Source: Candidatus Wolfebacteria bacterium
Lineage (GTDB): Bacteria > Patescibacteriota > Minisyncoccia > UBA6257 > UBA9933
Assembly: GCA_016188075.1 (NCBI GenBank)
Contig: JACPIO010000025.1
Span: 3,579-67,578, forward strand
Direction of reading: 5' to 3'
Length of the DNA: 64,000 bases
Below the pieces are notes generated by a model. The model worked only from the letters and a program-made list of their open reading frames with translations, did no database searches and was not told the DNA's origin. Below are positions 245-62,280 of the stretch, piece by piece; the first letter of the stretch is position 1, and each line of letters opens with the position of its first letter. The position numbers were made by a program, and so were the translations under genes.

Positions 245-3200
245 ATGATTGGCAAGACAAAAAAGCATTACCAAAAATTTTTAGCCACAACGATTGCGAT
301 CGCCACGATCGTTTCGTTGGTTTTTTATTCCGTCCCGCAACCTGCGGAAGCGGCCACCTATACATTCCAGCAAACCAATTGGGCTGGGGGAGCGTCGACT
401 TCCACGGCCACGCATCCGGGGGATCAGACCAGTTGGAATAAATATGCTTCGGGCGGCGCCACCAATGGCTTGGTTGGGTATTGGCCATTAGAAGAAGGCA
501 GTGGCACAAGCACGGCTGATTTAAGCGGTAATGGAAATACAGGGACGTTAGCGGCCAGCCCTGCAACTCCCACTTGGACCACGGCTGGAAAAATCGGCAA
601 TGCGTTGAGTTTTGATGGGAGTGATGATTACGTAAACGTTCCAGATAACAGTTCATTGAAACCTACTTCAGCGATTACTTATGCCATGTGGGTCTATCCG
701 AGACTTGCCAGCACTTTCGGAGTGTTCTTTGAAAAGGGAGATTCTACTACCGCGGGATATGGGGCATTTGTTACTTCTGACAACAAGTTCTGTTTTATAG
801 TTAAGACAACCACGGGAACGTATGCGGTTGGTAATTCAACTGCCCTTTATCAAGTGAATCAATGGCAGCACGTTGCAGTTACTTACGATTCTTCGGGAGC
901 CAAAAATATATATGTTAATGGAGTCAACCAAACTTTAACCTCAAGTGCGAATTGTGCTTTAACCAATGGAAGCGGTGACATTAGCCAAAGTACCGCTGCT
1001 CTCATTTTTGGTGCGCGGACGGCTAATCAATATTTCTTCAACGGCTCAATTGACGAAGTCCGCGTCTACAACCGCGCGCTGGCTGCTACGGAGGTTGCGG
1101 AACTTTATGGGGGTATCTCCGCCATCAACTCCGGGGCGGATTTGAGGATTGCGACTTCCACGGCTTCTTCGACCACCCAGACTGATGACGGAACAACGAA
1201 TACGGGATTTAATTTGGCTGGGAATTCGAAATCAAGCACTTATGTCCAAGGCACGAGCACTGCGGCCAATGTTCAGCTTTCGACAACAACGATTGGGTGG
1301 TATACGACAACGTTGGATTCGACCGGAGATGTTGGCTATACACCAGTTTTGGCAATAGGTTCAGACGGTTTTGCGAGGATTGCTTATGGCGATGCCACAA
1401 ATACAACGCTTAAATTTATTCAATGCACAAATGCCAGCTGTTCTACTATGAATGTTTCAACCATAGATAGCGGTGTTTCTTTGGGTGTTATCAATCACCA
1501 GATAGCCCTTGTTTTAGGTAATGATGGATTTGGCAGAATTGTTTATGGTTCTCCAACTATAAAGTTTGCTCAGTGCGGCAATGCCAGTTGCTCGACTGCT
1601 ACAACAACGGTAATTCATACTGCGCCTGCCAACGATTGGGCTTCATTCGCGATTGCTTTAGGGTCAGATGGTTTTGCGAGATTCACCTTTTCTGATCCTG
1701 GCGGTCAAAATAACCCTCTTATATTTTATCAGTGCACAAATGACAGTTGTTCAACCAAGGCAAGCAGTACCATTGCTAATTCCGTTGGGCGTGATTCTGC
1801 TATTGCGATGGCGTCCGATGGCTTTGCAAGGATACTTAATAGTTATTGGTATCAATGTAATAATGCGAATTGTTCTAGTGTAACCACAAGTACCATTCCT
1901 TCTACTGCTCTATATTCTTCGCCTCTTTATCACGCATTGGTTTTGGGATCAGATGATTTTGGGAGAGTTACATTTTATAATGCTGGTGATGGAAACAGTT
2001 ATTTTTTCCAATGCACTAATGCCAGCTGTTCGACAACAACCAGCGCAAAAAGAATTGATTTAGCGTATCCGCAAAATAGTAGCTATCTGTCTTTTGCTTT
2101 GGACTCCGCCGGATTTGGTAGAATTAGTTATTATGCCACAAGCACCACTAGAGTGCTTAAATTCGCTCAATGCGCCGATGCCAGCTGTTCTTCGTATGCT
2201 TCCACGACTGTTGATTCAAGTTCGGCGGAGACTGGTTTGTACACCTCAATTAAACTCGGCACTGGCGCGAATCTGGATTTAGCTCGGATTGCTTACTACG
2301 ATAAGACCAACGGCAATCTCAAATACGCCTATCAAGCCTTGAATTATCCTTCGACTGGCACCTTTACCTCGGGCCCTATCAATGTCGGGAATTCAGCGGG
2401 TCTTTGGGGAAATTTATCTTGGAGCGCCACAACAACTGCCCAGACTTCTGTAACTATCAAAGCCAGATCAGCTACTAATTCTTCGATGACCGGAGCCACG
2501 GATTGGGCTTCTTGCTCCAATATCACGAATGGCGCCGCTTTATCAACCGGCGGCTGTGTTACCAATGGCAACAACCATCAATACATCCAGTATCAAGCGA
2601 CTTTATCCACCACTGACGCCACTCAAACCCCTTCTCTAAATGATATCACAATCAATTATCAATTTTATGGAACTTCCGGCGTCTTAACTTCTTCAGCTTA
2701 CGACTCCAATGACGCCGCTAACCTTATTGGCACTTTGGCTTGGGACGAAGATACGACTTCACCATCAAATACCACCAGCACCTTGTCTTTGCGCACTGCT
2801 TCTTCGTCATCTAATTTAGCCTTAATGTCCTGGACTGATTTTACTGTCAACACCTCTGGTTGTTCCAAGGCTTCTGGCACTGTAACCTGCGGTTCATCTG
2901 CCATTCCCAGCTCAATGAAAACCGGAGCAGATGACCAATGGTTTCAGTACAAAATAACTCTGGCCTCTTCCAATACCGGCAACACTCCCACCATCGCCGA
3001 AGTCCGGGTTCAATACGTTGTTAATGCCCCGCCTCAATTCAATCCTTCCTATGGCACTGGCGGCGTTTCTGTTGCCCAAAATTCTTCTTCAACTGACAGT
3101 AACTGGGGTAAAGTCCAGATTACCTATCAGGTTTTGGATCCTGACACCACTTCCGGCACTGCCACGCCCAACAATGTTTCTTCTTCCTTTGAATACAATA

Positions 3201-6200
3201 TCGGCGGCAGTTGGACAGCTGTTTCCCCGACCAATTTAGCCGCAGGCGATACAAACAATAAAACCGTAAGTCCAGACACCTATACTCAATATACCGCCAC
3301 TTGGGACGCTAAAACCCAAATTCCCAATACCTATTATGCTACAGCTCAAGTAAGACAAACCGTGAATGACCACGAAGCTGCTAATAATACCGCGATTGCC
3401 ACGAGTTCCGCTTTTATCCTGGACACTAAAAATCCCTCCTCCACAATGACTCTAAACGGCGCCTCTTCCACTTTTACTTATACTCTAACAGATGATTCGA
3501 ATATCAGCTTTACGCTCTCGAACAACAGCAACCTGTCAGCTGACGGGTTGAACGCTTCGTCGGGAATTTTGCAAACTCTTTCTGTCACCTCAACTTCAGC
3601 CACTGTAAACTGGACTCTGGCCACTTCAAGCTATCCCACGGTTTATTTGAATGTGCGAGATATCTATGGCAACAATGTAACTGGCACCGCAGTGGCTCCC
3701 ACTCTTCCTTCTTCAATGGACATCAAAGACGTTTCCAATGTTACGACTAATTCATATTCCAACTTTATCTCCTGGGGAGTCTACAGCTCTGGAGCCAACG
3801 CCACTTTTTCCAATTATCGGGTGTTTCGGTCAACAAATGGCGGAAGCACTTATTCTCTTTTGACCACGATCACTGACGTGAACACCAATTATTACAGGGA
3901 CGCCTCTTTATCCTCTTCCACCACTTATTACTACAAAACCACGATTACGGATACGGACAACGACGTCTCCAGTTTTTCCTCGTCGGTCAATCACCAGCCC
4001 GTTGGTTCTGGCGGCACTGACCTTACTCCTCCAGCCATCACCAATGTTACGGTAACCTCAACTCAAGCCACCTGGGCCAGAATCACCTGGACCACGGATG
4101 AGTTGGCCACTCCGGAAATCAATTATTCGGCTTCTTCCACTGCTTACAATTTGACCGCGTCTACCACATCTTATTTAACTTCTCACGATATTACTCTTTC
4201 GGGTTTAACTCCCAATACGGTTTATTATTTCCGAGTGAGATCAACGGATATTGAAGGAAACCGAGGCACGAATGACAATGGGGGCTCCGGCTTTACCTTT
4301 ACCACCACAGGCGGCCCCATTATCTCGGATGTGACCACGGAATCTGTGACTGACAATTCCGCCACCATTATCTGGAATACCAATGTGGCGGCAAACTCCG
4401 CAGTTGTTTACGCTCAAAACATAACTGCTCTAAGAACCGGCGCTGGCATCTCGGAAGTTTCAAGCTCCAGCCCTGTGACCGGACCTCCGTATCAGCACCG
4501 AATCACGATTACTGGTTTAACTTCCAGAACCACCTATTACTACTATCCCAAAGTAACCGCTTCTTCGGATACCACGACCGACTCCAATTCCGGCAACTAT
4601 TATTCTTTCCGCACGGCTTACGACACCAAACCACCGGTGATCACCAATGTCACAACCACTGTTGTTACCAAAAACTCGGCTGTGATTACCTGGGTAACTG
4701 ACGAGTTATCTTCGAGTCAAGCTGACTATGGTTTAGCTGCCGGCTCCTATACCAATGCCACGACCATTGATTCCTTATTATCCATTACCCATTCCGCAAC
4801 TATTATTGGTCTTGCCCGAACCACCACTTATTATTTCCGAGTGAGATCAATTGACGCGGCTAACAATGAAGCCATCTCTCCGGAAGCTAATTTCCGCACC
4901 ACTGAAGCTGACACCATTATTATCTCAACAGGAGGCGCTGGCGGCGCTCCGCCTCCACCGCCCAGAGACACCACCCCGCCCAAGATCTCGGATATTCAAG
5001 CCGTAGATATTTCGGCTTTCGGAGCCACGGTGAAATTCGAAACAAACGAGTCGGCTCTCGCCATTATGGATTACGGCGAAACCAATATCTACGGCTTCGC
5101 GGCCGCGAGTCGCGACTTTCTGACCGGTCACGCCATTAAGCTCTCCGGCTTAAAACTCGGCACCGATTATCACTTTAAGATAAAGGCGATTGACAAAGAT
5201 AATAATTCGGCGACATCAGAAGATAATACTTTTCGGACGAAATTTTTCGCTGAATCCGTGGCCGAATTAAAAACAGTGGAGAACGCGTATCAGTTTCAGC
5301 AGGAAGTCGAAGAATCAATTGAATCAATCTTGCCGAGCATCATCCCGCCCTTTATCGAGAAGCCGAGAGTGGTTGACATTGCCGAAAATTCGGCGACCGT
5401 GCTTTGGAAAACTAATGTAAAAGCTTTCTCGGTCGTTGCTTACGCGCCGGAAGATGAATACGAAAAAGATCCGGTGAAACCCTACACCGCCGAGGCGGCT
5501 AATATCGAACGCAAAGTTCAAGAACATGAAGTGAAGCTCGCTGGTCTCAAGTCCAACACCCTTTATCACTATCAGGCTAAAGCTTTTAGTCTGCCTCAAG
5601 CTCTAAGCAAAACACCGGATTCGACTTTCCTTACGAAAACAGCCAAGACCCAGCCGCGAGTAGCTGATGTTGATAAAGACGCGATTCGAATCGTCTGGCG
5701 AACAGACGAGACGGCCAGTTCCATTGTGGAATACAAAAATTTGCGGACCGGGGAAATTAATCGGAAGATTAACGAAGAGAAAGTGAGCGATCACGACGCG
5801 CGGATTGAAAATTTATCTCCGGATACCACGTATCAAATCAGCGTTTCCGGCTATAATGTTAAAGATAATTTAATTGAAGGCGGCGAGCCCATTACTGTTA
5901 AAACCTCGAAGGACGTAACGCCGCCGGTGATCTCCTCGATTAAAATTGACAACGCCTTAGTGCCGGGCCGCACCGATCGCGTGCAAACCGTGGTCGGTTG
6001 GAAGACCAACGAGCCGGCGACATCCGTTGTTTTCTACGAAGAAGGAACCTCCGGGAAAAAGGGAACTGCCTTGGCGAATAAAATTGAAATTCCCAATCAG
6101 TTAGTGACGGACCACAATGTTATTTTAACCGAACTCCGGCCCGGAATACTTTACCGCGTTCAGTTGACATCCGTGGACGAAGCCGGCAATAAAATAACCT

Positions 6201-6304
6201 CGCCGGTCAGAACAATCATCACTCCCCAGCAAGCGCAATCAATTGTTGACGTTATTGTCAAAAATTTCGAAGACACCTTTAAATTTTTGAAAGAGATTAG
6301 GTAG
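245..6304 (+). CDS. giant secreted/cell-surface protein (2019 aa): N-terminal TM/signal, LamG/concanavalin-like domain, ~6 tandem ~50-aa Cys repeats (F-x-QCTNASCST), multiple FN3-like modules, Pro-rich linker
   Basis: single uninterrupted ORF; hydrophobic N-terminus; LamG-like block (FDGSDDYVNVPD...WQHVAVTYD...DEVRVYNRAL); repeated TWTTDE...YYFRVRS FN3-like signatures. Confidence 0.8.
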   Translation: MIGKTKKHYQKFLATTIAIATIVSLVFYSVPQPAEAATYTFQQTNWAGGASTSTATHPGDQTSWNKYASGGATNGLVGYWPLEEGSGTSTADLSGNGNTGTLAASPATPTWTTAGKIGNALSFDGSDDYVNVPDNSSLKPTSAITYAMWVYPRLASTFGVFFEKGDSTTAGYGAFVTSDNKFCFIVKTTTGTYAVGNSTALYQVNQWQHVAVTYDSSGAKNIYVNGVNQTLTSSANCALTNGSGDISQSTAALIFGARTANQYFFNGSIDEVRVYNRALAATEVAELYGGISAINSGADLRIATSTASSTTQTDDGTTNTGFNLAGNSKSSTYVQGTSTAANVQLSTTTIGWYTTTLDSTGDVGYTPVLAIGSDGFARIAYGDATNTTLKFIQCTNASCSTMNVSTIDSGVSLGVINHQIALVLGNDGFGRIVYGSPTIKFAQCGNASCSTATTTVIHTAPANDWASFAIALGSDGFARFTFSDPGGQNNPLIFYQCTNDSCSTKASSTIANSVGRDSAIAMASDGFARILNSYWYQCNNANCSSVTTSTIPSTALYSSPLYHALVLGSDDFGRVTFYNAGDGNSYFFQCTNASCSTTTSAKRIDLAYPQNSSYLSFALDSAGFGRISYYATSTTRVLKFAQCADASCSSYASTTVDSSSAETGLYTSIKLGTGANLDLARIAYYDKTNGNLKYAYQALNYPSTGTFTSGPINVGNSAGLWGNLSWSATTTAQTSVTIKARSATNSSMTGATDWASCSNITNGAALSTGGCVTNGNNHQYIQYQATLSTTDATQTPSLNDITINYQFYGTSGVLTSSAYDSNDAANLIGTLAWDEDTTSPSNTTSTLSLRTASSSSNLALMSWTDFTVNTSGCSKASGTVTCGSSAIPSSMKTGADDQWFQYKITLASSNTGNTPTIAEVRVQYVVNAPPQFNPSYGTGGVSVAQNSSSTDSNWGKVQITYQVLDPDTTSGTATPNNVSSSFEYNIGGSWTAVSPTNLAAGDTNNKTVSPDTYTQYTATWDAKTQIPNTYYATAQVRQTVNDHEAANNTAIATSSAFILDTKNPSSTMTLNGASSTFTYTLTDDSNISFTLSNNSNLSADGLNASSGILQTLSVTSTSATVNWTLATSSYPTVYLNVRDIYGNNVTGTAVAPTLPSSMDIKDVSNVTTNSYSNFISWGVYSSGANATFSNYRVFRSTNGGSTYSLLTTITDVNTNYYRDASLSSSTTYYYKTTITDTDNDVSSFSSSVNHQPVGSGGTDLTPPAITNVTVTSTQATWARITWTTDELATPEINYSASSTAYNLTASTTSYLTSHDITLSGLTPNTVYYFRVRSTDIEGNRGTNDNGGSGFTFTTTGGPIISDVTTESVTDNSATIIWNTNVAANSAVVYAQNITALRTGAGISEVSSSSPVTGPPYQHRITITGLTSRTTYYYYPKVTASSDTTTDSNSGNYYSFRTAYDTKPPVITNVTTTVVTKNSAVITWVTDELSSSQADYGLAAGSYTNATTIDSLLSITHSATIIGLARTTTYYFRVRSIDAANNEAISPEANFRTTEADTIIISTGGAGGAPPPPPRDTTPPKISDIQAVDISAFGATVKFETNESALAIMDYGETNIYGFAAASRDFLTGHAIKLSGLKLGTDYHFKIKAIDKDNNSATSEDNTFRTKFFAESVAELKTVENAYQFQQEVEESIESILPSIIPPFIEKPRVVDIAENSATVLWKTNVKAFSVVAYAPEDEYEKDPVKPYTAEAANIERKVQEHEVKLAGLKSNTLYHYQAKAFSLPQALSKTPDSTFLTKTAKTQPRVADVDKDAIRIVWRTDETASSIVEYKNLRTGEINRKINEEKVSDHDARIENLSPDTTYQISVSGYNVKDNLIEGGEPITVKTSKDVTPPVISSIKIDNALVPGRTDRVQTVVGWKTNEPATSVVFYEEGTSGKKGTALANKIEIPNQLVTDHNVILTELRPGILYRVQLTSVDEAGNKITSPVRTIITPQQAQSIVDVIVKNFEDTFKFLKEIR

Positions 6305-6374: not shown

Positions 6375-6608
6375 ATGACGCAAAAAGTTTTAAAGGTAGG
6401 GTCTTCCGCCGCCGTCACGATTCCCAAAAAATCGCTTAAAGAACTCGGTTTGAAAATTGGCGATTGGGTGTCTGTTGTTGTTGGCGCAAGGTCGGTGGTT
6501 ATTAGGCCGCACAGCAACTTTTCAAAAAGCGAAAATAAAATAGCGGAGTTAACGCTTAATTTTGTGAACCGTTATCGCAAAGATTTGGAAAATTTGTCCA
6601 AAAAGTAA
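6375..6608 (+). CDS. AbrB/MazE/SpoVT-type antitoxin
   Basis: 77 aa; swapped-hairpin motif VGSSAAVTIPKKSLKELGLKIGDWVSV; immediately upstream of the Doc gene with a 1-nt gap. Confidence 0.7.
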   Translation: MTQKVLKVGSSAAVTIPKKSLKELGLKIGDWVSVVVGARSVVIRPHSNFSKSENKIAELTLNFVNRYRKDLENLSKK

Positions 6609-6609
6609 A

Positions 6610-6993
6610 GTGGAATATCTAACCAGAAAAGACGTTTTATTGATTCATTCGATAATAATTGATGAAACGGGCGGGAGTCATGGCGTGAGAGATCATCACG
6701 CCATTTTAGTATTAGAAGATTTGCCGCGTCAGGCGGTTTTTGGGAAAGAGTTATATCCGACGATATATTTAAAAGCAGCGCTTTACGCGAGGAATATCAT
6801 CATGAGCCACCCGTTCATTGATGGGAATAAAAGGACCGGAGCGACCGCCGCATCGGTATTTTTAGAGAATAACGGCCATAAAATAACCGCTCAAAAAGGA
6901 GAGATTGAAAAATTCACCTTGAGAATCGTAAAGCAAAAACTGGATTTGGAAGAAATCGCTGATTGGTTTAAAAAACATTCGCGCAAGATTTAA
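6610..6993 (+). CDS. doc: Doc (death-on-curing) / Fic-family toxin
   Basis: 127 aa; Fic/Doc motif HPFIDGNKRTG. Confidence 0.8.
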   Translation: MEYLTRKDVLLIHSIIIDETGGSHGVRDHHAILVLEDLPRQAVFGKELYPTIYLKAALYARNIIMSHPFIDGNKRTGATAASVFLENNGHKITAQKGEIEKFTLRIVKQKLDLEEIADWFKKHSRKI

Positions 6994-7243: not shown

Positions 7244-7444
7244 GCCACATCTCCCTTCTCACTAAATTTCAGTCGCCAATAAATAAAACTTGTTTCGCTC
7301 AATTTTCCTACAAAAATTCGGTTCCCGTTCCTCCTTCGTTTCTCTCAGGATTTTCCGACCAAATTTTTGTGATTAGGAAAATTTTCACTAAACTTCGTTA
7401 ATTTATTATGGCGACTTCAAAAAGCGTTCGAAGGGAGATGTGGC
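7244..7444. mobile_element. ~200-bp MITE-like element with 15-bp terminal inverted repeats (gccacatctcccttc / gaagggagatgtggc) and nested sub-terminal IRs
   Basis: perfect 15-bp TIRs at 7244-7258 and 7430-7444; non-coding; related TIRs at 15141-15252. Confidence 0.5.
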
Positions 7445-7496
7445 TCCCGGTAAAGGGTATTATTTAAAGTAAATTTCTGGCGAAAGTATTTCGATT

Positions 7497-7536
7497 TCTA
7501 AATTCATAATTCTTAATTCATTATTCATAATTCATG
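7497..7536. repeat. 8-bp periodic array (ttcataattc units) abutting the mraZ start
   Basis: same family as the arrays at 19166-19206 and 51442-51473. Confidence 0.6.
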
Positions 7537-7971
7537 AACGCCTTTATCGGTGAATACTCGCACAATTTAGATCAGAAGGGCCGAATGGCGATTCCGGCGA
7601 AATTTAGAGAGAAGATGGTGGGCGGCGCGATTGTAACGCGCGGATTAGACCACTGCCTTTTTGTTTTTACCAATAAAGAATGGGAAGCGTTGGCGCAAAA
7701 GTTGGTAAGTTTGCCTTTGGCGCAATCAAATTCTCGGGCGTTTGTCCGTTTGATGCTCGCCGGAGCAATGGATGTGGAATTGGATAAGCAAGGCAGAATT
7801 TTAATTCCGGACTATCTAAGGGATTACGCTTGTTTGAAAAAACAGGTGGTGGTGGCTGGAATTTATAATCGTTTTGAAATTTGGGACAGCGAGGCGTGGA
7901 AGCAGTATAAAAATAAAACCGAAAGTCAGTCGGATGAGATAGCGGAGAAACTTTCGGAGTTAGGGATTTAG
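7534..7971 (+). CDS. mraZ: transcriptional regulator MraZ
   Basis: 145 aa; N-terminal IGEYSHNLDQKGRMAIP and second DKQGRILIP repeat typical of MraZ. Confidence 0.85.
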   Translation: MNAFIGEYSHNLDQKGRMAIPAKFREKMVGGAIVTRGLDHCLFVFTNKEWEALAQKLVSLPLAQSNSRAFVRLMLAGAMDVELDKQGRILIPDYLRDYACLKKQVVVAGIYNRFEIWDSEAWKQYKNKTESQSDEIAEKLSELGI

Positions 7972-7982
7972 CTTATTAGCTT
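7971..7982. repeat. left 12-bp inverted repeat (gcttattagctt) of the IVS-protein cassette
   Basis: perfect reverse complement of 8365-8376. Confidence 0.6.
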
Positions 7983-8005
7983 CATTAGCTTTTCAGGGAT
8001 TAGTC

Positions 8006-8371
8006 ATGATGGTCCATTCATACAAAGATTTAATAGTTTGGCAGAGGTCAGTTGAGCTAGTGGTCGCTGTTTATGAACTAACAGAAAAATTTCCAAAAGA
8101 AGAGATTTATGGATTGGTTTCACAAATGAGGAGAGCGGCGGTTTCAATTCCGTCGAACATCGCGGAAGGAAGATTAAGAGGAACAAGAAAAGATTTCTCG
8201 CAGTATTTAAGAATCGCGTACAGTTCGGGGGCTGAGTTGGAAACGCAAGTAGTAATAGCCAAAGCGCTTCCCAAGATGAAAAATCTCAATTATTTAAAAG
8301 TTGATTCATTATTGGAAGAAACAATGAAAATGCTGAACGTAATGATAAGGGGGTTAAATCCTAAAAGCTAA
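8006..8371 (+). CDS. four-helix-bundle protein, 23S rRNA intervening-sequence protein family
   Basis: 121 aa; motif FPKEE...QMRRAAVSIPSNIAEG...FLRIAYSSGAELETQ; inserted between mraZ and rsmH; flanked by 12-bp inverted repeats. Confidence 0.8.
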   Translation: MMVHSYKDLIVWQRSVELVVAVYELTEKFPKEEIYGLVSQMRRAAVSIPSNIAEGRLRGTRKDFSQYLRIAYSSGAELETQVVIAKALPKMKNLNYLKVDSLLEETMKMLNVMIRGLNPKS

Positions 8372-8376
8372 TAAGC
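8365..8376. repeat. right 12-bp inverted repeat (aagctaataagc) of the IVS-protein cassette
   Basis: perfect reverse complement of 7971-7982. Confidence 0.6.
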
Positions 8377-8394
8377 TATAGAAGCTAAAGGGCT

Positions 8395-9405
8395 ATGCAC
8401 CAACCGGTTCTTTTAAAAGAAACAATAGCTTTACTGGATCCGAAGCCCGGAGAATTCATTATTGATGGAACAATTGGTTCGGGCGGCCACGCAGCTAAAA
8501 TTTTTGAGAAAATTTTACCTCAAGGTAAATTGATTGGTATAGATTTAGATAAAGATAATCTTAAAAAAACAGAATCAAAAATTTTAGCTGAAATCAAAAA
8601 TGAAAAAGACCCGCCGGGGAGCGCAGCAGTAAAGATTAAAAATAATTTAATTCTGATTCAGGGAAATTACGCGGACTTACCGGAAATTCTTCAAAGCGCG
8701 GAACTACGCGGACTAAACGCAGACAAACGCGGAAAAAGAAAAGTTGATGGGTTATTACTCGATTTGGGGATGTCGTCGGAGCAGATAGAGCGGTCGGGAA
8801 GGGGGTTCAGTTTTTTGAGAAACGAGAAGTTAGACATGAGATATAACCATGAAGCAGGAAGCATGAATCATGAAGCATGGGCGACGGCAGGGGAAGTAAT
8901 AAATCGATTAAGTGAGAAGGAGTTGGCGGAGATTTTTTGGAAATACGGGGAGGAAAGATATTCGCGGCGGATCGCTAAGGGAATAGTAGAAAGTAGAAAG
9001 AGAATGGCGATTAAAACAACATTTGATCTGGTTCGCATCATAAGAAAATCAGCGCCAAAAAGTTATGAGAAGGGGCGTATACATCCGGCCACCAGAATTT
9101 TTCAGGCGCTTCGAATATATATAAACGACGAGTTGGGAAACTTAGAAAGATTGTTGAAAAATGCGCCTAATATTTTAAAAAGTGGCGGCCGGGCAGTAAT
9201 AATTTCTTTTCATTCGCTCGAGGATCGGTTAGTGAAAAATTATTTTAGAGAGATGAAAAAAGAAGGAAAAGCGGAGATTTTGACAAAAAAACCCATTATG
9301 GCTACGAGAGAAGAGGTGAAATTGAATCCTCGGTCTCGCTCCGCCAAACTTAGGGCAATAAAATTTAATTATTCTACGAAATTCGTAGACGATCGGCGAC
9401 CATGA
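8395..9405 (+). CDS. rsmH: 16S rRNA m4C1402 methyltransferase RsmH (MraW), with a low-complexity in-frame insert
   Basis: MHQPVLLKE...DGTIGSGGHA SAM-binding motif; ~25 aa longer than typical; insert SAELRGLNADKRGKRK is encoded by the ACGCGGA array at 8665-8738. Confidence 0.85.
   Translation: MHQPVLLKETIALLDPKPGEFIIDGTIGSGGHAAKIFEKILPQGKLIGIDLDKDNLKKTESKILAEIKNEKDPPGSAAVKIKNNLILIQGNYADLPEILQSAELRGLNADKRGKRKVDGLLLDLGMSSEQIERSGRGFSFLRNEKLDMRYNHEAGSMNHEAWATAGEVINRLSEKELAEIFWKYGEERYSRRIAKGIVESRKRMAIKTTFDLVRIIRKSAPKSYEKGRIHPATRIFQALRIYINDELGNLERLLKNAPNILKSGGRAVIISFHSLEDRLVKNYFREMKKEGKAEILTKKPIMATREEVKLNPRSRSAKLRAIKFNYSTKFVDDRRP
8665..8738. repeat. ACGCGGA-type periodic array inside rsmH coding sequence
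   Basis: units attacgcggactta, agcgcggaact, acgcggactaa, acgcagacaa, acgcggaaaa. Confidence 0.6.
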
Positions 9406-12712: not shown

Positions 12713-12785
12713 GCCGCCATCGTCTAGTGGCCTAGGACACTAGGTTCTCATCCTAGAAACCGGGGTTCGATTCCCCGTGGCGGTA
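12713..12785 (+). tRNA. tRNA-Glu (anticodon CUC)
   Basis: cloverleaf: acceptor gccgcca/tggcggt, D-arm tcgtctagtggcctaggac, anticodon loop ttCTCat, T-arm cgggg-ttcgatt-ccccg; matches bacterial tRNA-Glu. Confidence 0.85.
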
Positions 12786-12845
12786 CATAAATTTTTGATA
12801 CTACATCGAGGATCCTCGATACGACATCAAAATTAAAATTTTGGT

Positions 12846-12905
12846 CGTATCGGGAGACATCACGTTCTCAACGTGGGGACCCGGGTTCAAATCCCGGTGA
12901 GAGCA
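12846..12905 (+). other. 5'-truncated tRNA-like sequence (D-arm onward, anticodon loop ttCTCaa, good T-arm and 3' acceptor tgagagc-a) lacking a matching 5' acceptor strand
   Basis: well-formed anticodon and T arms but nothing adjacent pairs with the 3' acceptor; a separate tRNA 5'-fragment-like sequence (gcgctttcgtctagtggtcaag) lies at 12665-12690. Confidence 0.4.
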
Positions 12906-20445: not shown

Positions 20446-20525
20446 TAAGCAGTTAGAATCTAGAATTTAGTATTTAGGGGGCGGGGATTAGATTCCTAAC
20501 TCCTAAATACTAACTCCTAACTACT

Positions 20526-20843
20526 ATGGGTTTTGCAATCATTCAAACTGGCGGGAAGCAATATAAAGTATCTCCGGGGCAAAAAATTAGAATAGAAAAA
20601 GTTGAACCTAACGAAGAGGGGAATTTTGTCTTTGATAAAGTTCTTTTGGTTGCGGAGCAAGACGGAGAGGTTAAAATCGGCACGCCGTATGTTTCGGGCG
20701 CGAAGGTCGAGGGAAAAGTTTTAAAACAGGGGAGAGATAAAAAGAAAATTATTTTCCGCTATCATTCGAAAACGCGCTATCGAAAAAAGAAAGGGCATAG
20801 GCAGCCGTTTACGGAAGTCCTGGTTGACAAAATTAAGGGTTAA
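20526..20843 (+). CDS. rplU: 50S ribosomal protein L21
   Basis: MGFAIIQTGGKQYKVSPGQKIRIEK. Confidence 0.9.
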   Translation: MGFAIIQTGGKQYKVSPGQKIRIEKVEPNEEGNFVFDKVLLVAEQDGEVKIGTPYVSGAKVEGKVLKQGRDKKKIIFRYHSKTRYRKKKGHRQPFTEVLVDKIKG

Positions 20844-22771: not shown

Positions 22772-23965
22772 ATGAAATTTTTAAATTCGTTGGAGAAAAA
22801 AAGTCTTGCTGGCGAGATTTGTCTTTTGCGGATGGATTTGGATATTGAAAACACGGACTTACGCGGACTTAACGCTGACTCACACAGACAATTGCCATTC
22901 AGATTAGAAGCGGCTTTGCCGACAATTAAATTTTTGCTCGAAAGAAAAACCAAGGTGGTAATCTTGTCTCATCGCGGTAGGCCGCGGTCTGGGATATACG
23001 CGGATAGACGCAGAAAAGAATTCTCCCTGAAGCCGTTTGTGAAGATTTTAGCGTCCTTATTGAAACGCCCCATCTATTTTATCGATTTTAAAAATCTTAC
23101 GAGGCTTAGCCTCGTAAGATTGAAAAATGTTGTTAGAGACTCCGCCCCGGGCGCTATTTTTCTTTTGGAAAATTTAAGATTTTTGAAGGGTGAAATGGAA
23201 AACGACAAAAAATTCGCGAAACAATTGGCGTCGCTGGGAAGTTTTTACGTAAACGATGCTTTCGGCGTCAGTCATCGGGCGAACGCTTCAGTCGAAGCCA
23301 TTACTCATTTTTTGCCTTCATACGCCGGTTTGCACATGGAAAAAGAATTAGAAAAACTGAATGGGTTGACGAAAAAAGCGAAACGGCCATTCGTGATTAT
23401 TCTCGGCGGTTCGAAAACTCACGATAAACTGCCGCTTATAAAAAATTTATGGAATAAAGCGGATTATTTTCTTTTGGGCGGCGGGGTTGCCAATACTTTT
23501 TTCGCGGCTCAAGGATTGCTGATCGGAGATTCCTTGCGTGGAGACAGCGCGGAACTGCGCGGAATACTGCGCGGAATTACGCGGAAAGAATTATCACGAA
23601 AAGTTATCTTGCCAGTTGATGTTGCGATTAAGGATAGAAAAATTTTGGATATCGGACCGAAAACAGTTAAAAGATTCGGCGAAATTATAAAGAAAGCGAA
23701 AACGATTATTTGGAACGGGCCAATGGGATTGATTGAGGATCCGCGATTTGCCAAGGGTTCGGCGGAGGTGGCACGATTTATTTCTCAAAGCCGCGCTTTC
23801 TCTGTTGTTGGTGGAGGAGAAACTACCTCTCTAATTACCAATTACCAATTACCAATTACCAAAAGAAATATTTTTCTTTCTACCGGCGGCGGCGCGATGC
23901 TCGAATATCTGGCGGGCAAGAAATTACCGGGCATAGAGGTGTTGAAAAAGTCTACTGTCGACTGA
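22772..23965 (+). CDS. pgk: phosphoglycerate kinase carrying in-frame repeat-derived segments
   Basis: ILSHRGRP, FYVNDAFGVSHRANAS, GGGVANTF and STGGGAMLEY motifs; ATG at 22772 (the track ORF from 22706 overlaps tRNA-Gly); 10-aa insert NLTRLSLVRL from the 29-bp palindrome. Confidence 0.85.
   Translation: MKFLNSLEKKSLAGEICLLRMDLDIENTDLRGLNADSHRQLPFRLEAALPTIKFLLERKTKVVILSHRGRPRSGIYADRRRKEFSLKPFVKILASLLKRPIYFIDFKNLTRLSLVRLKNVVRDSAPGAIFLLENLRFLKGEMENDKKFAKQLASLGSFYVNDAFGVSHRANASVEAITHFLPSYAGLHMEKELEKLNGLTKKAKRPFVIILGGSKTHDKLPLIKNLWNKADYFLLGGGVANTFFAAQGLLIGDSLRGDSAELRGILRGITRKELSRKVILPVDVAIKDRKILDIGPKTVKRFGEIIKKAKTIIWNGPMGLIEDPRFAKGSAEVARFISQSRAFSVVGGGETTSLITNYQLPITKRNIFLSTGGGAMLEYLAGKKLPGIEVLKKSTVD
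22851..22885. repeat. ACGCGGA-type array inside pgk (encodes TDLRGLNADSH)
   Basis: units acacggactt, acgcggactta, acgctgactc. Confidence 0.5.
23093..23121. repeat. palindromic element copy 3 (aatcttacgaggc-tta-gcctcgtaagatt) in-frame inside pgk
   Basis: 13-bp arms; about 10 extra residues relative to E. coli Pgk at this position. Confidence 0.75.
23545..23590. repeat. ACGCGGA-type array inside pgk (encodes SAELRGILRGITRKE)
   Basis: gcgcggaact, gcgcggaatact, gcgcggaattac, gcggaaag. Confidence 0.6.
23831..23855. repeat. ccaattac x3 tandem repeat inside pgk (encodes ITNYQLPIT)
   Basis: reverse complement of the taattggtaatt family at 12631-12660. Confidence 0.5.
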
Positions 23966-40925: not shown

Positions 40926-40957
40926 AGAGCGTTTTTCGTGTAGTATTATTTAAAAAG

Positions 40958-41010
40958 ATTCCGCGACTTTCCGCGTTAAGTCCGCGAGATTCCGCGATTA
41001 ATGCGAGAGC
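40958..41010. repeat. TCCGCG-type periodic array in the kinase / pilC intergenic region
   Basis: attccgcgact, ttccgcgttaag, tccgcgagat, tccgcgattaa. Confidence 0.55.
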
Positions 41011-50998: not shown

Positions 50999-52144
50999 TC
51001 ACATTTCAACGGGTTTCCCGCCTTCAATCTGAATTTTTTTCAATTTCAACACCGACGCGCGAGTCGGTGCTCCGACTCCTTCGGGACGTCGGAGTTTTCC
51101 GTTAATTAATTCCGCCTCCAAAATTTTTATTCTTTGAGGTCCACCCTTCGACGGGCTCAGGGTAAATACTCCTGGTTCGGGATTTAAAGCCCGAATTTTC
51201 CGCTCTATTTGAATCGCGATTTCTCCGCCCTCGCTCCGCGCGTTTTCTAAATCCGCTGGTTCAATAAAAGCATCTTCAGTTTTGAATTTTTTGGTATAGG
51301 TGGCTCGCGATTCGTCTTGGGGTGTGAGGTTCAATCTCCCAAATATTGACTCTAATTCATGAGGAGATTGAACCTCCCGAAATTGATTCAAAAATTCCAC
51401 CAGTAAATCGCCGCCCAATTCCGCCAATTTCCGCATTAGCGATTCATAATTCATAATTCCTAATTCATAATTCTCAAGCGCTTTTTGCGCGAGAACTGGT
51501 CCGTGATCCACTTTTTCATCCATTAAAAAAAGCGTTACGCCGGTTTCTTTTTCGCCGTTCAAAATCGCGGACTGAATAGGGGAGGGGCCGCGGTATTTTG
51601 GCAAGAGCGACGGATGAATTCCGATTGAGCCGAGCCGCGGAATCTCCAAAATTTCTTTGGGAAGAATTTTCGCGTAAGCGGCAACTACAAAGAAATCATA
51701 TTCCCGATATAATAAATTTGCCGTGGGTCCGGAATGGTTCGGGTTCGGGATTGACACCCGAGACCCCGGGGCTCGATTCCCCGCGGATCCACGGTCTTCT
51801 GATTTATCCACAAGGGGGCTTGACAACTGGTCATCGTTTAATATACTAATGTTAGGTGTCAATCCCGGATTTCTCGAATCATTCGAGGTTTCGGCAAAAG
51901 CCCCGTTTAAAGCGGGGTTTTTGGTTTTTAAATTTTCTGGTTGCCAAACCGGGATATCGTATTTTTGAGCAATAATTTTGGTAGGGGGTGATGTCAGTAT
52001 CTTTTTTCTTCCCACTGGCCGGTCGGGATTGCAAACAACCACTCCCGGCGCGAAACCGGCTTTAATCAATCTCTCCAAAATAATGGCGGCGAACTCAGGA
52101 GTACCGAAGAATACGAAATTTGGATTACGAAAATACGAAATCAT
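50999..52144 (-). CDS. fmt: methionyl-tRNA formyltransferase carrying two in-frame inserts
   Basis: FGTPEFA, HPSLLPKYRG, C-terminal domain; 381 aa versus about 315; about 65-aa GC-rich insert between the VWQP and VVAAYAKIL blocks (DNA 51721-51925); ENYELGIMNYES encoded by the 8-bp array. Confidence 0.85.
   Translation of the reverse strand: MISYFRNPNFVFFGTPEFAAIILERLIKAGFAPGVVVCNPDRPVGRKKILTSPPTKIIAQKYDIPVWQPENLKTKNPALNGAFAETSNDSRNPGLTPNISILNDDQLSSPLVDKSEDRGSAGNRAPGSRVSIPNPNHSGPTANLLYREYDFFVVAAYAKILPKEILEIPRLGSIGIHPSLLPKYRGPSPIQSAILNGEKETGVTLFLMDEKVDHGPVLAQKALENYELGIMNYESLMRKLAELGGDLLVEFLNQFREVQSPHELESIFGRLNLTPQDESRATYTKKFKTEDAFIEPADLENARSEGGEIAIQIERKIRALNPEPGVFTLSPSKGGPQRIKILEAELINGKLRRPEGVGAPTRASVLKLKKIQIEGGKPVEM
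51442..51473. repeat. 8-bp periodic array (attcataattcataattcctaattcataattc) in-frame in fmt
   Basis: same family as 19166-19206. Confidence 0.6.
51721..51925. mobile_element. ~200-bp GC-rich MITE-like element inserted in-frame in fmt, containing a plus-strand tRNA-like fold and 12-bp inverted repeats
   Basis: IR gggattgacacc (51747-51758) / ggtgtcaatccc (51855-51866); tRNA-like at 51725-51791 (acceptor gggtccg/cggatcc, anticodon arm tcggg-attgaca-cccga, T-arm cgggg-ctcgatt-ccccg, no D-arm); hairpin + T-run ccccgtttaaagcggggttttt at 51901-51922. Confidence 0.55.
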
Positions 52145-52160
52145 ACGAAAAATACGAAAT
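52110..52160. repeat. TACGAA periodic array at one end of the GxxExxY unit (overlaps the fmt N-terminus)
   Basis: atacgaaat, ttacgaaaa, tacgaaatca, tacgaaaaa, tacgaaatt. Confidence 0.6.
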
Positions 52161-52570
52161 TATTTTATATTGACTACTCTTTTAAATTTTACTCCTGATT
52201 TTGTAAATCTAGCTAGTATTCCTAATTTTAAATTCGTTGATTTTAAATAATTATAAATTTGCTCTATGTCTTTTTTACTAAAAACATTTCCTTGTTTAAT
52301 TTCTAAAACTATCTTTCCTTCAATTAAAAAATCTAAATAAATTGTTGTAATAAAATTATTTCTATAATTTATTCTAATTGGTAGTTCTTTTTCGTAATTA
52401 ATATTGGATTTTTTAAAGGCAATTTCTATGGCTTTTTGATATTGATTTTCTTTATAGCCAAAACCCAATTCTAAAAATACATCAAAAAGAACACCAATTA
52501 TCTGATAACTAAGTTCAGGATATAGTAAATCGGGGTTGTAAACTTTATTGTTTTTCGTACTTTCGTACAT
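52160..52570 (-). CDS. free-standing GxxExxY / PD-(D/E)XK nuclease-like protein
   Basis: LSYQIIGVLFDVFLELGFGYKENQYQKAIEIAF ... DFLIEGKIVLEIK; inserted between def and fmt. Confidence 0.7.
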   Translation of the reverse strand: MYESTKNNKVYNPDLLYPELSYQIIGVLFDVFLELGFGYKENQYQKAIEIAFKKSNINYEKELPIRINYRNNFITTIYLDFLIEGKIVLEIKQGNVFSKKDIEQIYNYLKSTNLKLGILARFTKSGVKFKRVVNIK

Positions 52571-53099
52571 TTTCGTACTTTCGTAAGTTCTTACATTTAT
52601 CGATGTACAAAATTCCATTTAGGTGGTCTACTTCATGTTGAAAAACTTTAGCCAAAAGTCCCCAGGCTTTGATTTTGATTTTTTTAGCGTTTTTATCCTG
52701 GCCGACAAGAGTAATTTTTTCCGGGCGTTCCACGTCGCCGTAATATCCTCCGGGCACGCTTAAGCAACCTTCTTCCATTAAGGTTTTTTTATCGGAGGTT
52801 TTTATTATTTTCGGATTAAAAATAGCGTAAAACTTCTGGTCTTCCGAGGTCACTGAATTAGCGCTTCGTCGCGAGGTGGCCCTTACTTGCGCCACAAATA
52901 CTCGCATATCAAGGCCGATTTGATTGGCAGCTAATCCGATCCCATCCGCCTCAATCATTTTCTCTTTCATTTCTTTTACCATCGCATTAATTTCTTTCTT
53001 GCTATATTTAGTAAAATCAAAATTCGCCGTCTGCCTGCGCAAAAATTTTTCTTCTGCCTTGTTATCTCTTGTTAAAATTTTTAAATTTTGATTTGGCAT
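52545..53099 (-). CDS. def: peptide deformylase
   Basis: GIGLAANQIG, EGCLSVPG, HEVDHLNG; start taken at MPNQ (53099); the track ORF extends to 53177 through a repeat-rich region. Confidence 0.85.
   Translation of the reverse strand: MPNQNLKILTRDNKAEEKFLRRQTANFDFTKYSKKEINAMVKEMKEKMIEADGIGLAANQIGLDMRVFVAQVRATSRRSANSVTSEDQKFYAIFNPKIIKTSDKKTLMEEGCLSVPGGYYGDVERPEKITLVGQDKNAKKIKIKAWGLLAKVFQHEVDHLNGILYIDKCKNLRKYENVRKYEKQ
52553..52590. repeat. TTCGTA periodic array at the other end of the GxxExxY unit (inverted orientation)
   Basis: ttcgtactttcgtacattttcgtactttcgtaag. Confidence 0.6.
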
Positions 53100-53436
53100 T
53101 TTTTCGTACTTTCGCCCGCCTCGCCGACTCGACCTCCGTAGCCACTTCGGCGAAGGAAGCAGCCTTCGGCGTAGCACGGGTATATTTTCGCACTTTCGTA
53201 AGTAGTGTCATGAAGTACGCTCCTTTATTGCTCACATTTTTTCTGTCGGAAACATCTCGCGCCAATTCCAATAGTTTTTGCTGGTCTTTTTCTTTGGCTA
53301 ATTTGATATAGAGCGATTTATGTTTTTCGTCGTTCAAAAGTTGGCTAATCAAAAGTCCGGTTAATTGATATTTCCGATAAACCCGACTCTTCTTGGCGCG
53401 CTCTTTAAGGGTTTCGATGTAACCTGTTTTTTCCAT
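53062..53436 (-). CDS. hypothetical basic protein
   Basis: 124 aa; overlaps the def start; contains a GC-rich segment flanked by TTCGTA units. Confidence 0.35.
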   Translation of the reverse strand: MEKTGYIETLKERAKKSRVYRKYQLTGLLISQLLNDEKHKSLYIKLAKEKDQQKLLELARDVSDRKNVSNKGAYFMTLLTKVRKYTRATPKAASFAEVATEVESARRAKVRKNAKSKFKNFNKR

Positions 53437-61669: not shown

Positions 61670-61794
61670 CCCTCCTTTTTTGCCCCCACACCAAACGAGA
61701 AGACACGCTTTCTCGTTATGGTGTGGGGGCTTGACAAATTTTTCAAGCTTCGTATAGAATAGGCTGTCGATAAAGAAAGGTCAAAGTTAAAGTA

Positions 61795-61880
61795 TCGATG
61801 CGAATATACGAATTATACTAATGATACGAATTTTATTCGTATAATTCGTACATTTGTATATTGGTATCGATACGCGCGAA
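61795..61880. promoter_or_regulatory. palindromic TACGAA/TTCGTA array upstream of groES (candidate operator; no CIRCE present)
   Basis: perfect IR tacgaattatac (61807-61818) / gtataattcgta (61839-61850) plus flanking gtatcgat repeats. Confidence 0.45.
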
Positions 61881-62176: not shown

Positions 62177-62180
62177 TCGC

Positions 62181-62260
62181 TCATACGAAAATACGAAAAC
62201 ATACGAAATTTCGAAAAATAAATTTTAATTTCGTACATTCGTAAAATTTCGTACTTTCGT
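62181..62260. repeat. palindromic TACGAA array in the groES-groEL spacer
   Basis: tacgaaaatacgaaaacatacgaaatttcgaaaa ... tttcgtacattcgtaaaatttcgtactttcgtaag. Confidence 0.6.
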
Positions 62261-62280
62261 AAGAGTGAGCGACAGCGAAC

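Follow-up and report, generated by a model that had tools for sequence, protein, structure and literature searches.

A four-helix-bundle gene enclosed by inverted tandem-repeat arms between mraZ and rsmH in Candidatus Wolfebacteria: a candidate IVS-like cassette in an mRNA operon

The closest described counterparts of the element analyzed here are the intervening sequences (IVSs) of 23S rRNA that carry an open reading frame (ORF), as in Leptospira and Coxiella burnetii (CBU_2096/S23p). The element is a gene for a four-helix-bundle protein, flanked by inverted repeats and lying between mraZ and rsmH in a 64,000-nt stretch of a Candidatus Wolfebacteria genome (contig JACPIO010000025.1, positions 3,579 to 67,578; hereafter the window); the gene and its flanking repeats, or arms, are together called the cassette. 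The 428-nt Coxiella IVS has a 28-bp terminal stem whose loop contains the S23p ORF, and RNase III cleaves this IVS in vitro (PMC4990558). The cassette resembles it in the protein family encoded in the loop, in size (426 bp), and in having complementary borders that enclose the ORF, here a perfect 14-nt inverted repeat and a 35-nt extended one. It also resembles the rRNA IVSs in the occurrence of ORF-less beside ORF-bearing versions and in a sporadic, horizontal distribution (PMC4990558). It differs from them in its host transcript, which is the mRNA operon mraZ-rsmH; the window contains no rRNA, Rfam finding only tRNAs there. Its arms are inverted tandem arrays of TAG-core units, a possible further difference, and its ORF is under strong purifying selection, whereas that of Coxiella is in decay and apparently silent. 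Cleavage by RNase III, proven for the rRNA IVSs, is a prediction for the cassette. As IVSs are defined by their location in rRNA, the cassette is classed here as an IVS-like element in an mRNA operon, and not as an IVS.

The Correia elements of Neisseria and the enterobacterial repetitive intergenic consensus (ERIC) elements are short inverted-repeat elements between operon genes, which fold in mRNA and undergo RNase III processing or affect the stability of the mRNA. The ORF-less hairpins described below look much like them. The termini of the Correia and ERIC elements, however, are fixed in sequence and not internally tandem, and these elements have target-site duplications, many near-identical copies and no gene. 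Integron gene cassettes are, like the present one, promoter-less single ORFs that stand in sense orientation downstream of a host promoter and carry an imperfect inverted repeat able to form a hairpin. However, the integron attC is one site at one end, recombined by IntI at attI, whereas here the hairpin halves lie on either side of the ORF, the sites are scattered operon spacers and there is no integrase.

The cassette arms also resemble the intergenic heptamer and octamer arrays (the cyanobacterial short tandemly repeated repetitive (STRR) sequences, TAACTGA, GGGAATC and the Geobacter arrays), in which 7-8-nt tandem units stand beside start or stop codons in operon spacers. The TAACTGA repeats of Beggiatoa, cyanobacteria and Bacteroidetes give stops in all frames in their forward orientation (PMC4679880), the heptamer arrays of Xanthomonas and Nostoc form ~70 convergent pairs in Xanthomonas, where the unit is GGGAATC (PMC4692102), and Geobacter metallireducens has 24 + 21 + 8 opposite-strand array pairs, for example in nifD-nifK and proB-proA (PMC2700814). 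These arrays have been read as G-quadruplexes, global-regulator sites or post-transcriptional signals, and in those papers none is tied to PF05635, the family of the cassette protein, or to GxxExxY, a second gene family considered below (PMC4679880, PMC4692102, PMC2700814). Unlike the published arrays, the arms described here bracket a specific small gene and travel with it. A homologous four-helix-bundle fold, which assembles into a pentamer, is found in the Avd protein of diversity-generating retroelements (DGRs; bAvd, PDB 4DWL; PMC10053308); unlike Avd, the cassette protein scores below the cut-offs of the Avd models.

The cassette between mraZ and rsmH

The locus comprises the following features.

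7534-7971, plus strand: mraZ, 145 aa (PF02381, E 3e-42; TIGR00242, E 7e-46)
7961-8003, plus strand: left arm, five TAG-core units (TAG at 7961, 7969, 7977, 7986 and 8001; spacing 8, 8, 9 and 15)
7969-8394, plus strand: whole cassette of left arm, ribosome-binding region, ORF and right arm, 426 bp, delimited by homology to cassettes in four unrelated contexts
7969-7982, plus strand: left half of the perfect 14-nt inverted repeat, TAGCTTATTAGCTT (inverted-repeat search, 100% complementary)
8006-8371, plus strand: four-helix-bundle protein gene, 121 aa (PF05635 / TIGR02436)
8361-8395, plus strand: right arm, five CTA-core units (CTA at 8361, 8368, 8376, 8384 and 8393; spacing 7, 8, 8 and 9)
8365-8378, plus strand: right half of the perfect 14-nt inverted repeat, AAGCTAATAAGCTA (inverted-repeat search)
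8395-9405, plus strand: rsmH, 336 aa (PF01795, E 2e-93; TIGR00006, E 1e-86)

The interval from the mraZ stop to the rsmH start is wholly occupied by arm, ORF and arm, with no remainder. The TAG at 7969-7971 serves at once as mraZ stop codon, as second TAG-core unit (the first full one) of the left arm and as opening triplet of the inverted repeat; the MraZ C-terminus that it closes, ...AEKLSELGI, is identical in two relatives (L086 and L087). The TAGs of the left arm cover all three reading frames. The right arm takes in the ORF stop (TAA, 8369-8371) and reaches into the rsmH ATG by one base, this start codon adjoining the last arm unit (CTATG). Tandem Repeats Finder reports 2.8 copies of period 9 at 7968-7991 and 3.5 copies of period 8 at 8361-8388, and each arm contains at least three units of 7-9 nt abutting start or stop codons in an intergenic spacer. 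The extended inverted repeat consists of 35-nt arms (7969-8003 and 8361-8395) with 71% complementarity. An earlier note on this DNA had reported a 12-bp repeat, gcttattagctt at 7971-7982, with its exact reverse complement, aagctaataagc, at 8365-8376. Both are present, but the description as simple 12-bp termini needs amending: the perfect match is 14 nt long, and each arm consists of 7-9-nt units in tandem, the two arrays being inverted relative to each other.

The sequence AGGGA (7995-7999, plus strand), 6 nt before the ATG at 8006, is the likely Shine-Dalgarno sequence of the cassette ORF. The GC content of the cassette is 37.8%, compared with 45.0% for mraZ and 44.4% for the window. No terminator-like site was found in 7300-8600 and no T-run follows either arm; promoter-like matches in the cassette region are at background level only, with no convincing internal promoter among them. 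In both the minimum-free-energy and the centroid fold of 7955-8410, the ORF is enclosed by an arm-arm helix.

Profile searches bear out the family identity that the earlier note had proposed for the 121-aa product, in which the motif QMRRAAVSIPSNIAEG...AYSSGAELETQ is present as reported. The protein matches PF05635 (23S_rRNA_IVP; E 1.1e-35, 122.5 bits against a cut-off of 33.8) over residues 7-111, aligned to positions 1-105 of the 106 in the profile, TIGR02436 ('four helix bundle protein'; E 2.2e-33, 114.7 bits, cut-off 24) and NF008911 (137.1 bits, cut-off 137). A second ATG at 8009 agrees with the MIHSYK start of homologues. The family motif is GxxRxxxSxxxNxxE (Zhang & Ye / Lin et al., quoted in PMC3936711); its R-x3-S-x3-N-x2-E part is present within QMRRAAVSIPSNIAEG as R42-AAV-S46-IPS-N50-IA-E53, with the leading G off the expected spacing. 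By sequence similarity, the closest solved structure is that of Xanthomonas XCC0516 (2GSC, E 2.6e-22), with 2RLD more distant (E 2e-3); both entries contain five chains, and a pentamer of the family is described in Lin et al. 2006, according to its citation in PMC4990558. Synonymous sites are saturated between the cassette gene and its closest homologues (pS 0.72-0.85), whereas nonsynonymous divergence is low (dN 0.12-0.19; dN/dS at most 0.06). The protein is therefore functional and under strong purifying selection. No other PF05635 ORF was found within the window.

The closest RsmH proteins in a collection of 5.8 billion proteins are only 60-68% identical, and synteny was compared in six loci (L086-L091) that encode four of these. 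In all six, rsmH follows straight after mraZ and is itself followed by a small ORF, a penicillin-binding protein (PBP) gene and a Mur ligase gene, with no four-helix-bundle gene; in L086, mraZ and rsmH overlap (ATGA). The exact mraZ-rsmH spacer of L087, L088/89 and L090/91 holds an ORF-less hairpin of 72-114 nt, formed by inverted tandem arrays of 7-9-nt units (fold z -4.6 to -5.7). That of L087 reads TAG ATAGGTGT TAGGTGA TAGGTTT TAGATGT TAG-aaaaaa-CCTAAAAA CTAAAA CCTAAAAA... ATG. The units of these hairpins (TAGGTGT, GTTCATAAA, AAATCCGAA) differ from the TAGCTT of the window cassette. The site is thus empty or hairpin-only in the relatives and, since ORF-less hairpins occupy the same junction, the site itself and not just the cassette has a history. 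The absence of the gene from all six loci supports the suggestion that it was inserted between mraZ and rsmH; no relative was found in which the gene stands at this site without the repeats.

The genomic contexts of the closest homologues of the cassette protein (77-82% amino acid identity) are unrelated: a hypothetical gene and pilMN flank the one in L092, an asparaginase gene and a hypothetical gene the one in L094, and the other two stand after gyrA (L095) and before a prgI-like gene (L006). The arms of these homologues are built from the same unit family as those of the window cassette (TAGCTTnn / nnAAGCTA), the blocks TAGCTTCGTTAGCT and TAGCTTCATTAGCT being common to the closest cassettes and TAGCTTC[GA]TTAGCT also persisting. 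In a five-way DNA alignment, homology extends over arms and ORF (73% mean column identity) and is gone beyond the outer arm edges. Cross-locus arm complementarity, measured over 1225 pairs of arm-bearing loci, is 16.8 where protein identity is at least 70% and ~7 where it is below 60%; arm sequence thus diverges together with the protein. In another Patescibacteria genome, the pilus-gene operon of L092 holds two four-helix-bundle cassettes 1.1 kb apart (974-1321 and 2443-2808) with different arm units, GCCAGAnn and TAGCTTnn, so that arms follow the individual cassette and not the host locus. Arm sequence is kept despite saturated synonymous sites, which shows that the arms are themselves under constraint. 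These comparisons support arrival as a discrete unit, as the earlier note had supposed, and indicate that ORF and arms have been inherited and relocated together among unrelated operon spacers, almost always in sense orientation. A search for further copies with the same terminal repeats found none in the window, where there is no second TAGCTT array; it is the homologues elsewhere that carry TAGCTT arms.

Arms across the PF05635 family

Eighty loci with homologues of the cassette protein (43-77% identity) were fetched from species-representative genomes of the candidate phyla radiation (CPR), Bacteroidota, Acidobacteriota, Planctomycetota, Clostridia, Proteobacteria and archaeal bins. Of the homologous genes, 69 were usable, and 303 other ORFs in the same loci served as controls. 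A flanking inverted-repeat score of at least 12 was reached by 67% of the homologues and by 2% of the controls (Mann-Whitney p = 3e-22); the background obtained by cross-locus pairing of upstream and downstream sides had a mean of 6.8 and a 95th percentile of 10. Scores of at least 14 occur in 1.3% of the control ORFs, so that the window cassette, taken alone, is only moderately unusual; as a trait of the whole family, the excess is overwhelming. The usual form of the arms is (TAGnnnn)n upstream and (nnnnCTA)n downstream, with units lying 7 nt apart in 169 cases and 8 nt apart in 50. Unit counts per arm are bimodally distributed, the mode being 4-5, compared with 5 + 5 in the window cassette.

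In 56% of the four-helix-bundle loci (4% of controls) the 60 nt upstream contain at least three TAGs, in 53% (4% of controls) there are at least three CTAs downstream, and the TAG units give stops in all three frames in 51% of loci, against 17% of controls. The gene shares its strand with the upstream neighbor in 59 of 66 loci and with the downstream neighbor in 59 of 66 (~89% each), and the gaps to neighboring genes are mostly 15-80 nt. Contexts that could be identified include sufC-sufB, pilB-pilC and neighbors of sua5, and a family gene between cmr3 and cmr2 has been published (PMC3936711). Arm-bearing copies were found on viral contigs too. Among 17 homologous loci with atypical spacing, a scan placed none in rRNA and found only two riboswitches, both in L065. 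The arms are therefore a property of the gene family and not a local accident.

In several CPR genomes (L009, L012, L029 and L034; also L006, 2049-2543), a cassette lies directly upstream of the same small gene, MQFKVPQF.., which belongs to the PrgI family in L006. The arms of these cassettes differ between genomes and are internally complementary in each. The spot before this gene may be a recurrent or an ancient insertion site.

The GxxExxY cassette and the hairpins of the window that lack an ORF

The genes def and fmt form a near-universal pair, and in the window they are separated by a GxxExxY gene (PF13366, E 9e-28; TIGR04256, E 9e-28). The features concerned, together with the ORF-less hairpins of the window, are as follows.

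50999-52144, minus strand: fmt (PF00551)
52126-52585, minus strand: GxxExxY / PDDEXK_3 cassette, a separate element of the same class, with its gene at ~52160-52570, between def and fmt
52545-53177, minus strand: def (PF01327)
20450-20528, plus strand: ORF-less hairpin whose inverted arrays have a TAG core (TTAGAAT.. / ..TCCTAAC) and which reaches to the start of rplU (L21, PF00829); fold -27.5 kcal/mol, z -4.5
61790-61870: ORF-less hairpin before groES, of inverted tandem 7-9-nt arrays
62177-62265, plus strand: ORF-less hairpin of inverted (TACGAAA)n arrays in the groES-groEL spacer (groES, PF00166); fold -25.4 kcal/mol, z -6.4

The arms of the GxxExxY cassette are inverted (TACGAAA)n arrays (52126-52159 and 52553-52585, Tandem Repeats Finder), and its GC content of 23% compares with 42-46% in the flanks. 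These arrays contribute coding sequence to the def C-terminus, which ends in ..NLRKYENVRKYEKQ before the stop codon, and to the predicted fmt N-terminus (MISYFRNPNF..). Nearly all of 24 metagenomic GxxExxY relatives have inverted TAC-core arms (TACGAAA, TACAAAT, TACTAAA or TACAGAT). In the 19 GxxExxY loci that were counted, all have at least three upstream TACs and 5% have at least three TAGs; this sample consists of close CPR relatives only, and the uniform TAC core may reflect shared ancestry. GxxExxY proteins have a PD-(D/E)XK nuclease fold (PF13366; PMC3424549). The fold z of the ORF-less hairpins in the window ranges from -4.5 to -6.4.

Many further arrays of 7-11-nt units were reported in the window by Tandem Repeats Finder. 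A second repeat class, with units of 10-11 nt around ACGCGGA / TCCGCG, has most of its copies inside long ORFs, at the following positions.

8665-8735, 22850-22880, 23535-23586, 28029-28066, 28835-28918, 29184-29265 and 40956-41001: copies of the ACGCGGA / TCCGCG repeat

The copy within rsmH encodes ..AELRGLNADKRGKRK.., an insertion relative to homologues. Two heptamer arrays also touch the genes that flank the four-helix-bundle cassette: (AATTCAT)5 at 7496-7535, which ends on the mraZ ATG, and (CATGAAG)4.6 inside rsmH at 8848-8879, which is partly complementary to it and encodes ..NHEAGSMNHEAW... The same loop of RsmH is hypervariable in relatives and carries other short peptide repeats there (ELRIQNSELRN, IRNSKFEIRN, EMSNEKGEMRN). 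Tandem arrays seem, from these sequences, to be tolerated and to turn over inside the rsmH coding region.

Just upstream of the dcw cluster, at 6375-6993, lies a pair of genes for a Fic/Doc toxin (PF02661) and a MazE-like antitoxin (PF04014). It is preceded by a gene (245-6304) for a predicted surface protein of 2019 aa with many internal repeats and Cys-rich motifs of the 'CTNASCST' type; the relative L086 also has a large protein upstream of mraZ. A partial tRNA-like Rfam match (12842-12897; 31.8 bits, model positions 8-63) begins 56 nt past a tRNA-Glu (12713-12786) and has no ARAGORN call; it may be a tRNA fragment or pseudogene.

A proposed mechanism and its alternatives

The reading that we favor, and hold to be somewhat better than an even bet, is that 7969-8394 is a self-contained, promoter-less cassette of IVS-like architecture lodged in an mRNA operon, the proposed stem and RNase III release included. 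The cassette would be transcribed from the dcw promoter along with mraZ and rsmH, and its arms would pair in the transcript to form a stem of ~26-35 bp that closes off the ORF. By analogy with the rRNA IVSs, RNase III would cut this stem, and the flanking cistrons and the cassette would be released as separate translatable RNAs, the insertion being tolerated. Such a release would explain tolerance of insertion even in essential operons. The left arm would also end incoming translation in every frame while supplying the mraZ stop. More speculatively, the periodic core (TAG here, TAC in GxxExxY) may be a recognition motif of the cassette's own oligomer, aiding maintenance or relocation. A core specific to each family, together with arm conservation past synonymous saturation, argues for recognition by a family-specific factor. 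The encoded oligomer would be the most economical candidate for this factor; its solved homologues form a pentameric ring, and it is akin to the nucleic-acid-binding Avd (PMC10053308).

A number of observations weigh against parts of this proposal. The whole-cassette fold (7955-8410) is only modestly better than those of shuffled sequences (z -1.75), and ribosomes stopping at the mraZ stop in the left arm and at the cassette stop in the right arm would compete with the stem. Mismatches in 46 arm pairs comprise 28 of the G-U type and 33 of the A-C type; with no sense-strand G-U bias, selection could act on the DNA and not on the sense RNA. No RNase III gene was found in the 64 kb, a result with no bearing on the rest of the genome. 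A target-site duplication is absent, the outer flanks (...GGGATT / TAGCTT... and ...GGGCTA / TGCACC) having no direct repeat, and the four-helix-bundle cassette contains no nuclease or recombinase. No presence/absence polymorphism was seen, exact-protein look-ups with the cassette protein and with MraZ giving only cassette-bearing contigs. Since synonymous sites are saturated, the relocations are old, and any active mobility today would be conjectural. Three-frame stops were also considered as the general purpose of the arrays and were rejected: the TACGAAA arms contain no stops in either orientation and are read into def and fmt.

The order of events could have been the reverse, with a host hairpin of inverted arrays (serving RNA processing, stability or regulator binding) already in the mraZ-rsmH spacer of this clade, as in many other operon spacers of the genome, and the gene landing in its loop, so that the repeats would be no part of a mobile unit. 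Hairpins without an ORF exactly between mraZ and rsmH in L087, L088/89 and L090/91, and those of the window upstream of rplU and of groES and in the groES-groEL spacer, are what this would predict, and in Geobacter metallireducens, where opposite-strand hepta- and octanucleotide array pairs occupy operon spacers, IS110-family elements are inserted between paired arrays (PMC2700814). However, the arms follow the ORF lineage and not the site: TAGCTT units accompany the closest proteins in five unrelated contexts, with homology stopping at the arm edges, whereas the hairpins of the relatives at this very junction use other units and the window has no other TAGCTT array. We therefore regard this order of events as unlikely. 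A classical DNA transposon or miniature inverted-repeat transposable element (MITE), in which the arms would be terminal inverted repeats for a transposase encoded elsewhere and the ORF a passenger, would account for the inverted termini, for the discreteness of the unit and for ORF-less versions that look like non-autonomous derivatives. It is nevertheless improbable, given that there is no target-site duplication at 7968/8395 and no second TAGCTT copy in the 64 kb, that arms vary widely among cassettes of one family and between the two cassettes of the window, and that transposase-binding termini do not look like these arms, which are internally tandem and vary in length. Everywhere, moreover, the cargo comes from one or two protein families, which argues that the protein matters to the element. 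Still further down the scale is the proposal that the gene encodes the Avd accessory protein of a DGR. DGRs are common in CPR, and the protein gives weak matches to bAvd (PF22296, 19.9 bits) and DGR Avd (NF033474, 20.8 bits); both scores are far under the cut-offs (40 and 80 bits, respectively), and the cassette architecture recurs in housekeeping operons. No template or variable repeats were found near the gene, and no adjacent reverse transcriptase was seen among the genes within ~5 kb (those for the 2019-aa surface protein, MazE, Fic/Doc, MraZ, RsmH, an ftsL-sized small ORF and the PBP), the window as a whole not having been profile-scanned. Taken together, these results make a DGR origin very improbable.

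A different role for the arms, compatible with the proposed cassette, is that they are putative binding arrays for its ring-shaped oligomer, with candidate targets (UAGCUUNN)4-5 and (NNAAGCUA)4-5, and that the stem is secondary. The oligomer could then act in autoregulation, in control of the flanking genes or in marking the ends for relocation, much as TRAP wraps (G/U)AG repeats. Avd binds reverse transcriptase and nucleic acid. The PF05635 family is homologous to DGR Avd (PMC10053308) and GxxExxY has a nuclease fold (PMC3424549), both of which would suit such a role. So would the constancy of the core within each family beside a drifting remainder of the unit (TAG in PF05635 across phyla, TAC in GxxExxY), the conservation of arms despite saturated synonymous sites, and the modal 4-5 units per arm (5 + 5 in the window) beside the five chains of both solved homologues. 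On the other hand, the sense RNA would show UAG in the left arm only, the right arm reading CUA, 4-5 units of 7 nt equally match the length that an RNase III-competent stem needs, 44% of the four-helix-bundle loci have fewer than three TAGs, and the TAC core of the GxxExxY sample, drawn from close CPR relatives alone, may be shared ancestry. Binding arrays are accordingly put forward as a possibility that we consider less probable than not. That the inverted repeat is due to chance, or is merely the mraZ terminator, is refuted for practical purposes: a lone 14-nt repeat could arise in an AT-rich spacer, and 1.3% of control ORFs reach the score, but the family-wide excess (p 3e-22) and the lack of a terminator-like site in 7300-8600 speak against it, and the arms enclose the ORF and do not follow mraZ.

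The comparisons point to a widespread, phylum-spanning class of cassettes with periodic, family-specific arms, which is apparently undescribed. No link of PF05635/TIGR02436 or of GxxExxY to flanking tandem-repeat arms was found in the literature, of which coverage was incomplete, so that an earlier mention (for example in database family notes) is possible. We tentatively suggest a wider scheme, for which the odds are rather against than for: PF05635 and GxxExxY genes may be 'autonomous' members of a class of operon loop cassettes, with their own cores recognized by the encoded oligomer, the ORF-less heptamer-array hairpins (STRR, TAACTGA, GGGAATC and the Geobacter pairs) being non-autonomous relatives or landing sites, and the rRNA IVSs the special case that was noticed first.

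The proposed cassette amounts to a searchable sequence rule, an ORF in a loop with inverted arms of 4-5 units sharing a family-specific core, and it predicts that RNase III cuts the arm-arm stem and that the pentamer binds TAG-core repeats. For annotators, breaks of conserved pairs such as mraZ-rsmH, def-fmt, sufC-sufB and pilB-pilC can be cassettes, and not anomalies of assembly or gene order. More broadly, the finding could join three loose ends: the role of the abundant PF05635 family, whose only characterized relative is the DGR Avd; the origin and mobility of the rRNA IVSs; and the meaning of the intergenic heptamer-class arrays, known for decades from cyanobacteria, Xanthomonas, Beggiatoa, Geobacter and Bacteroidetes.

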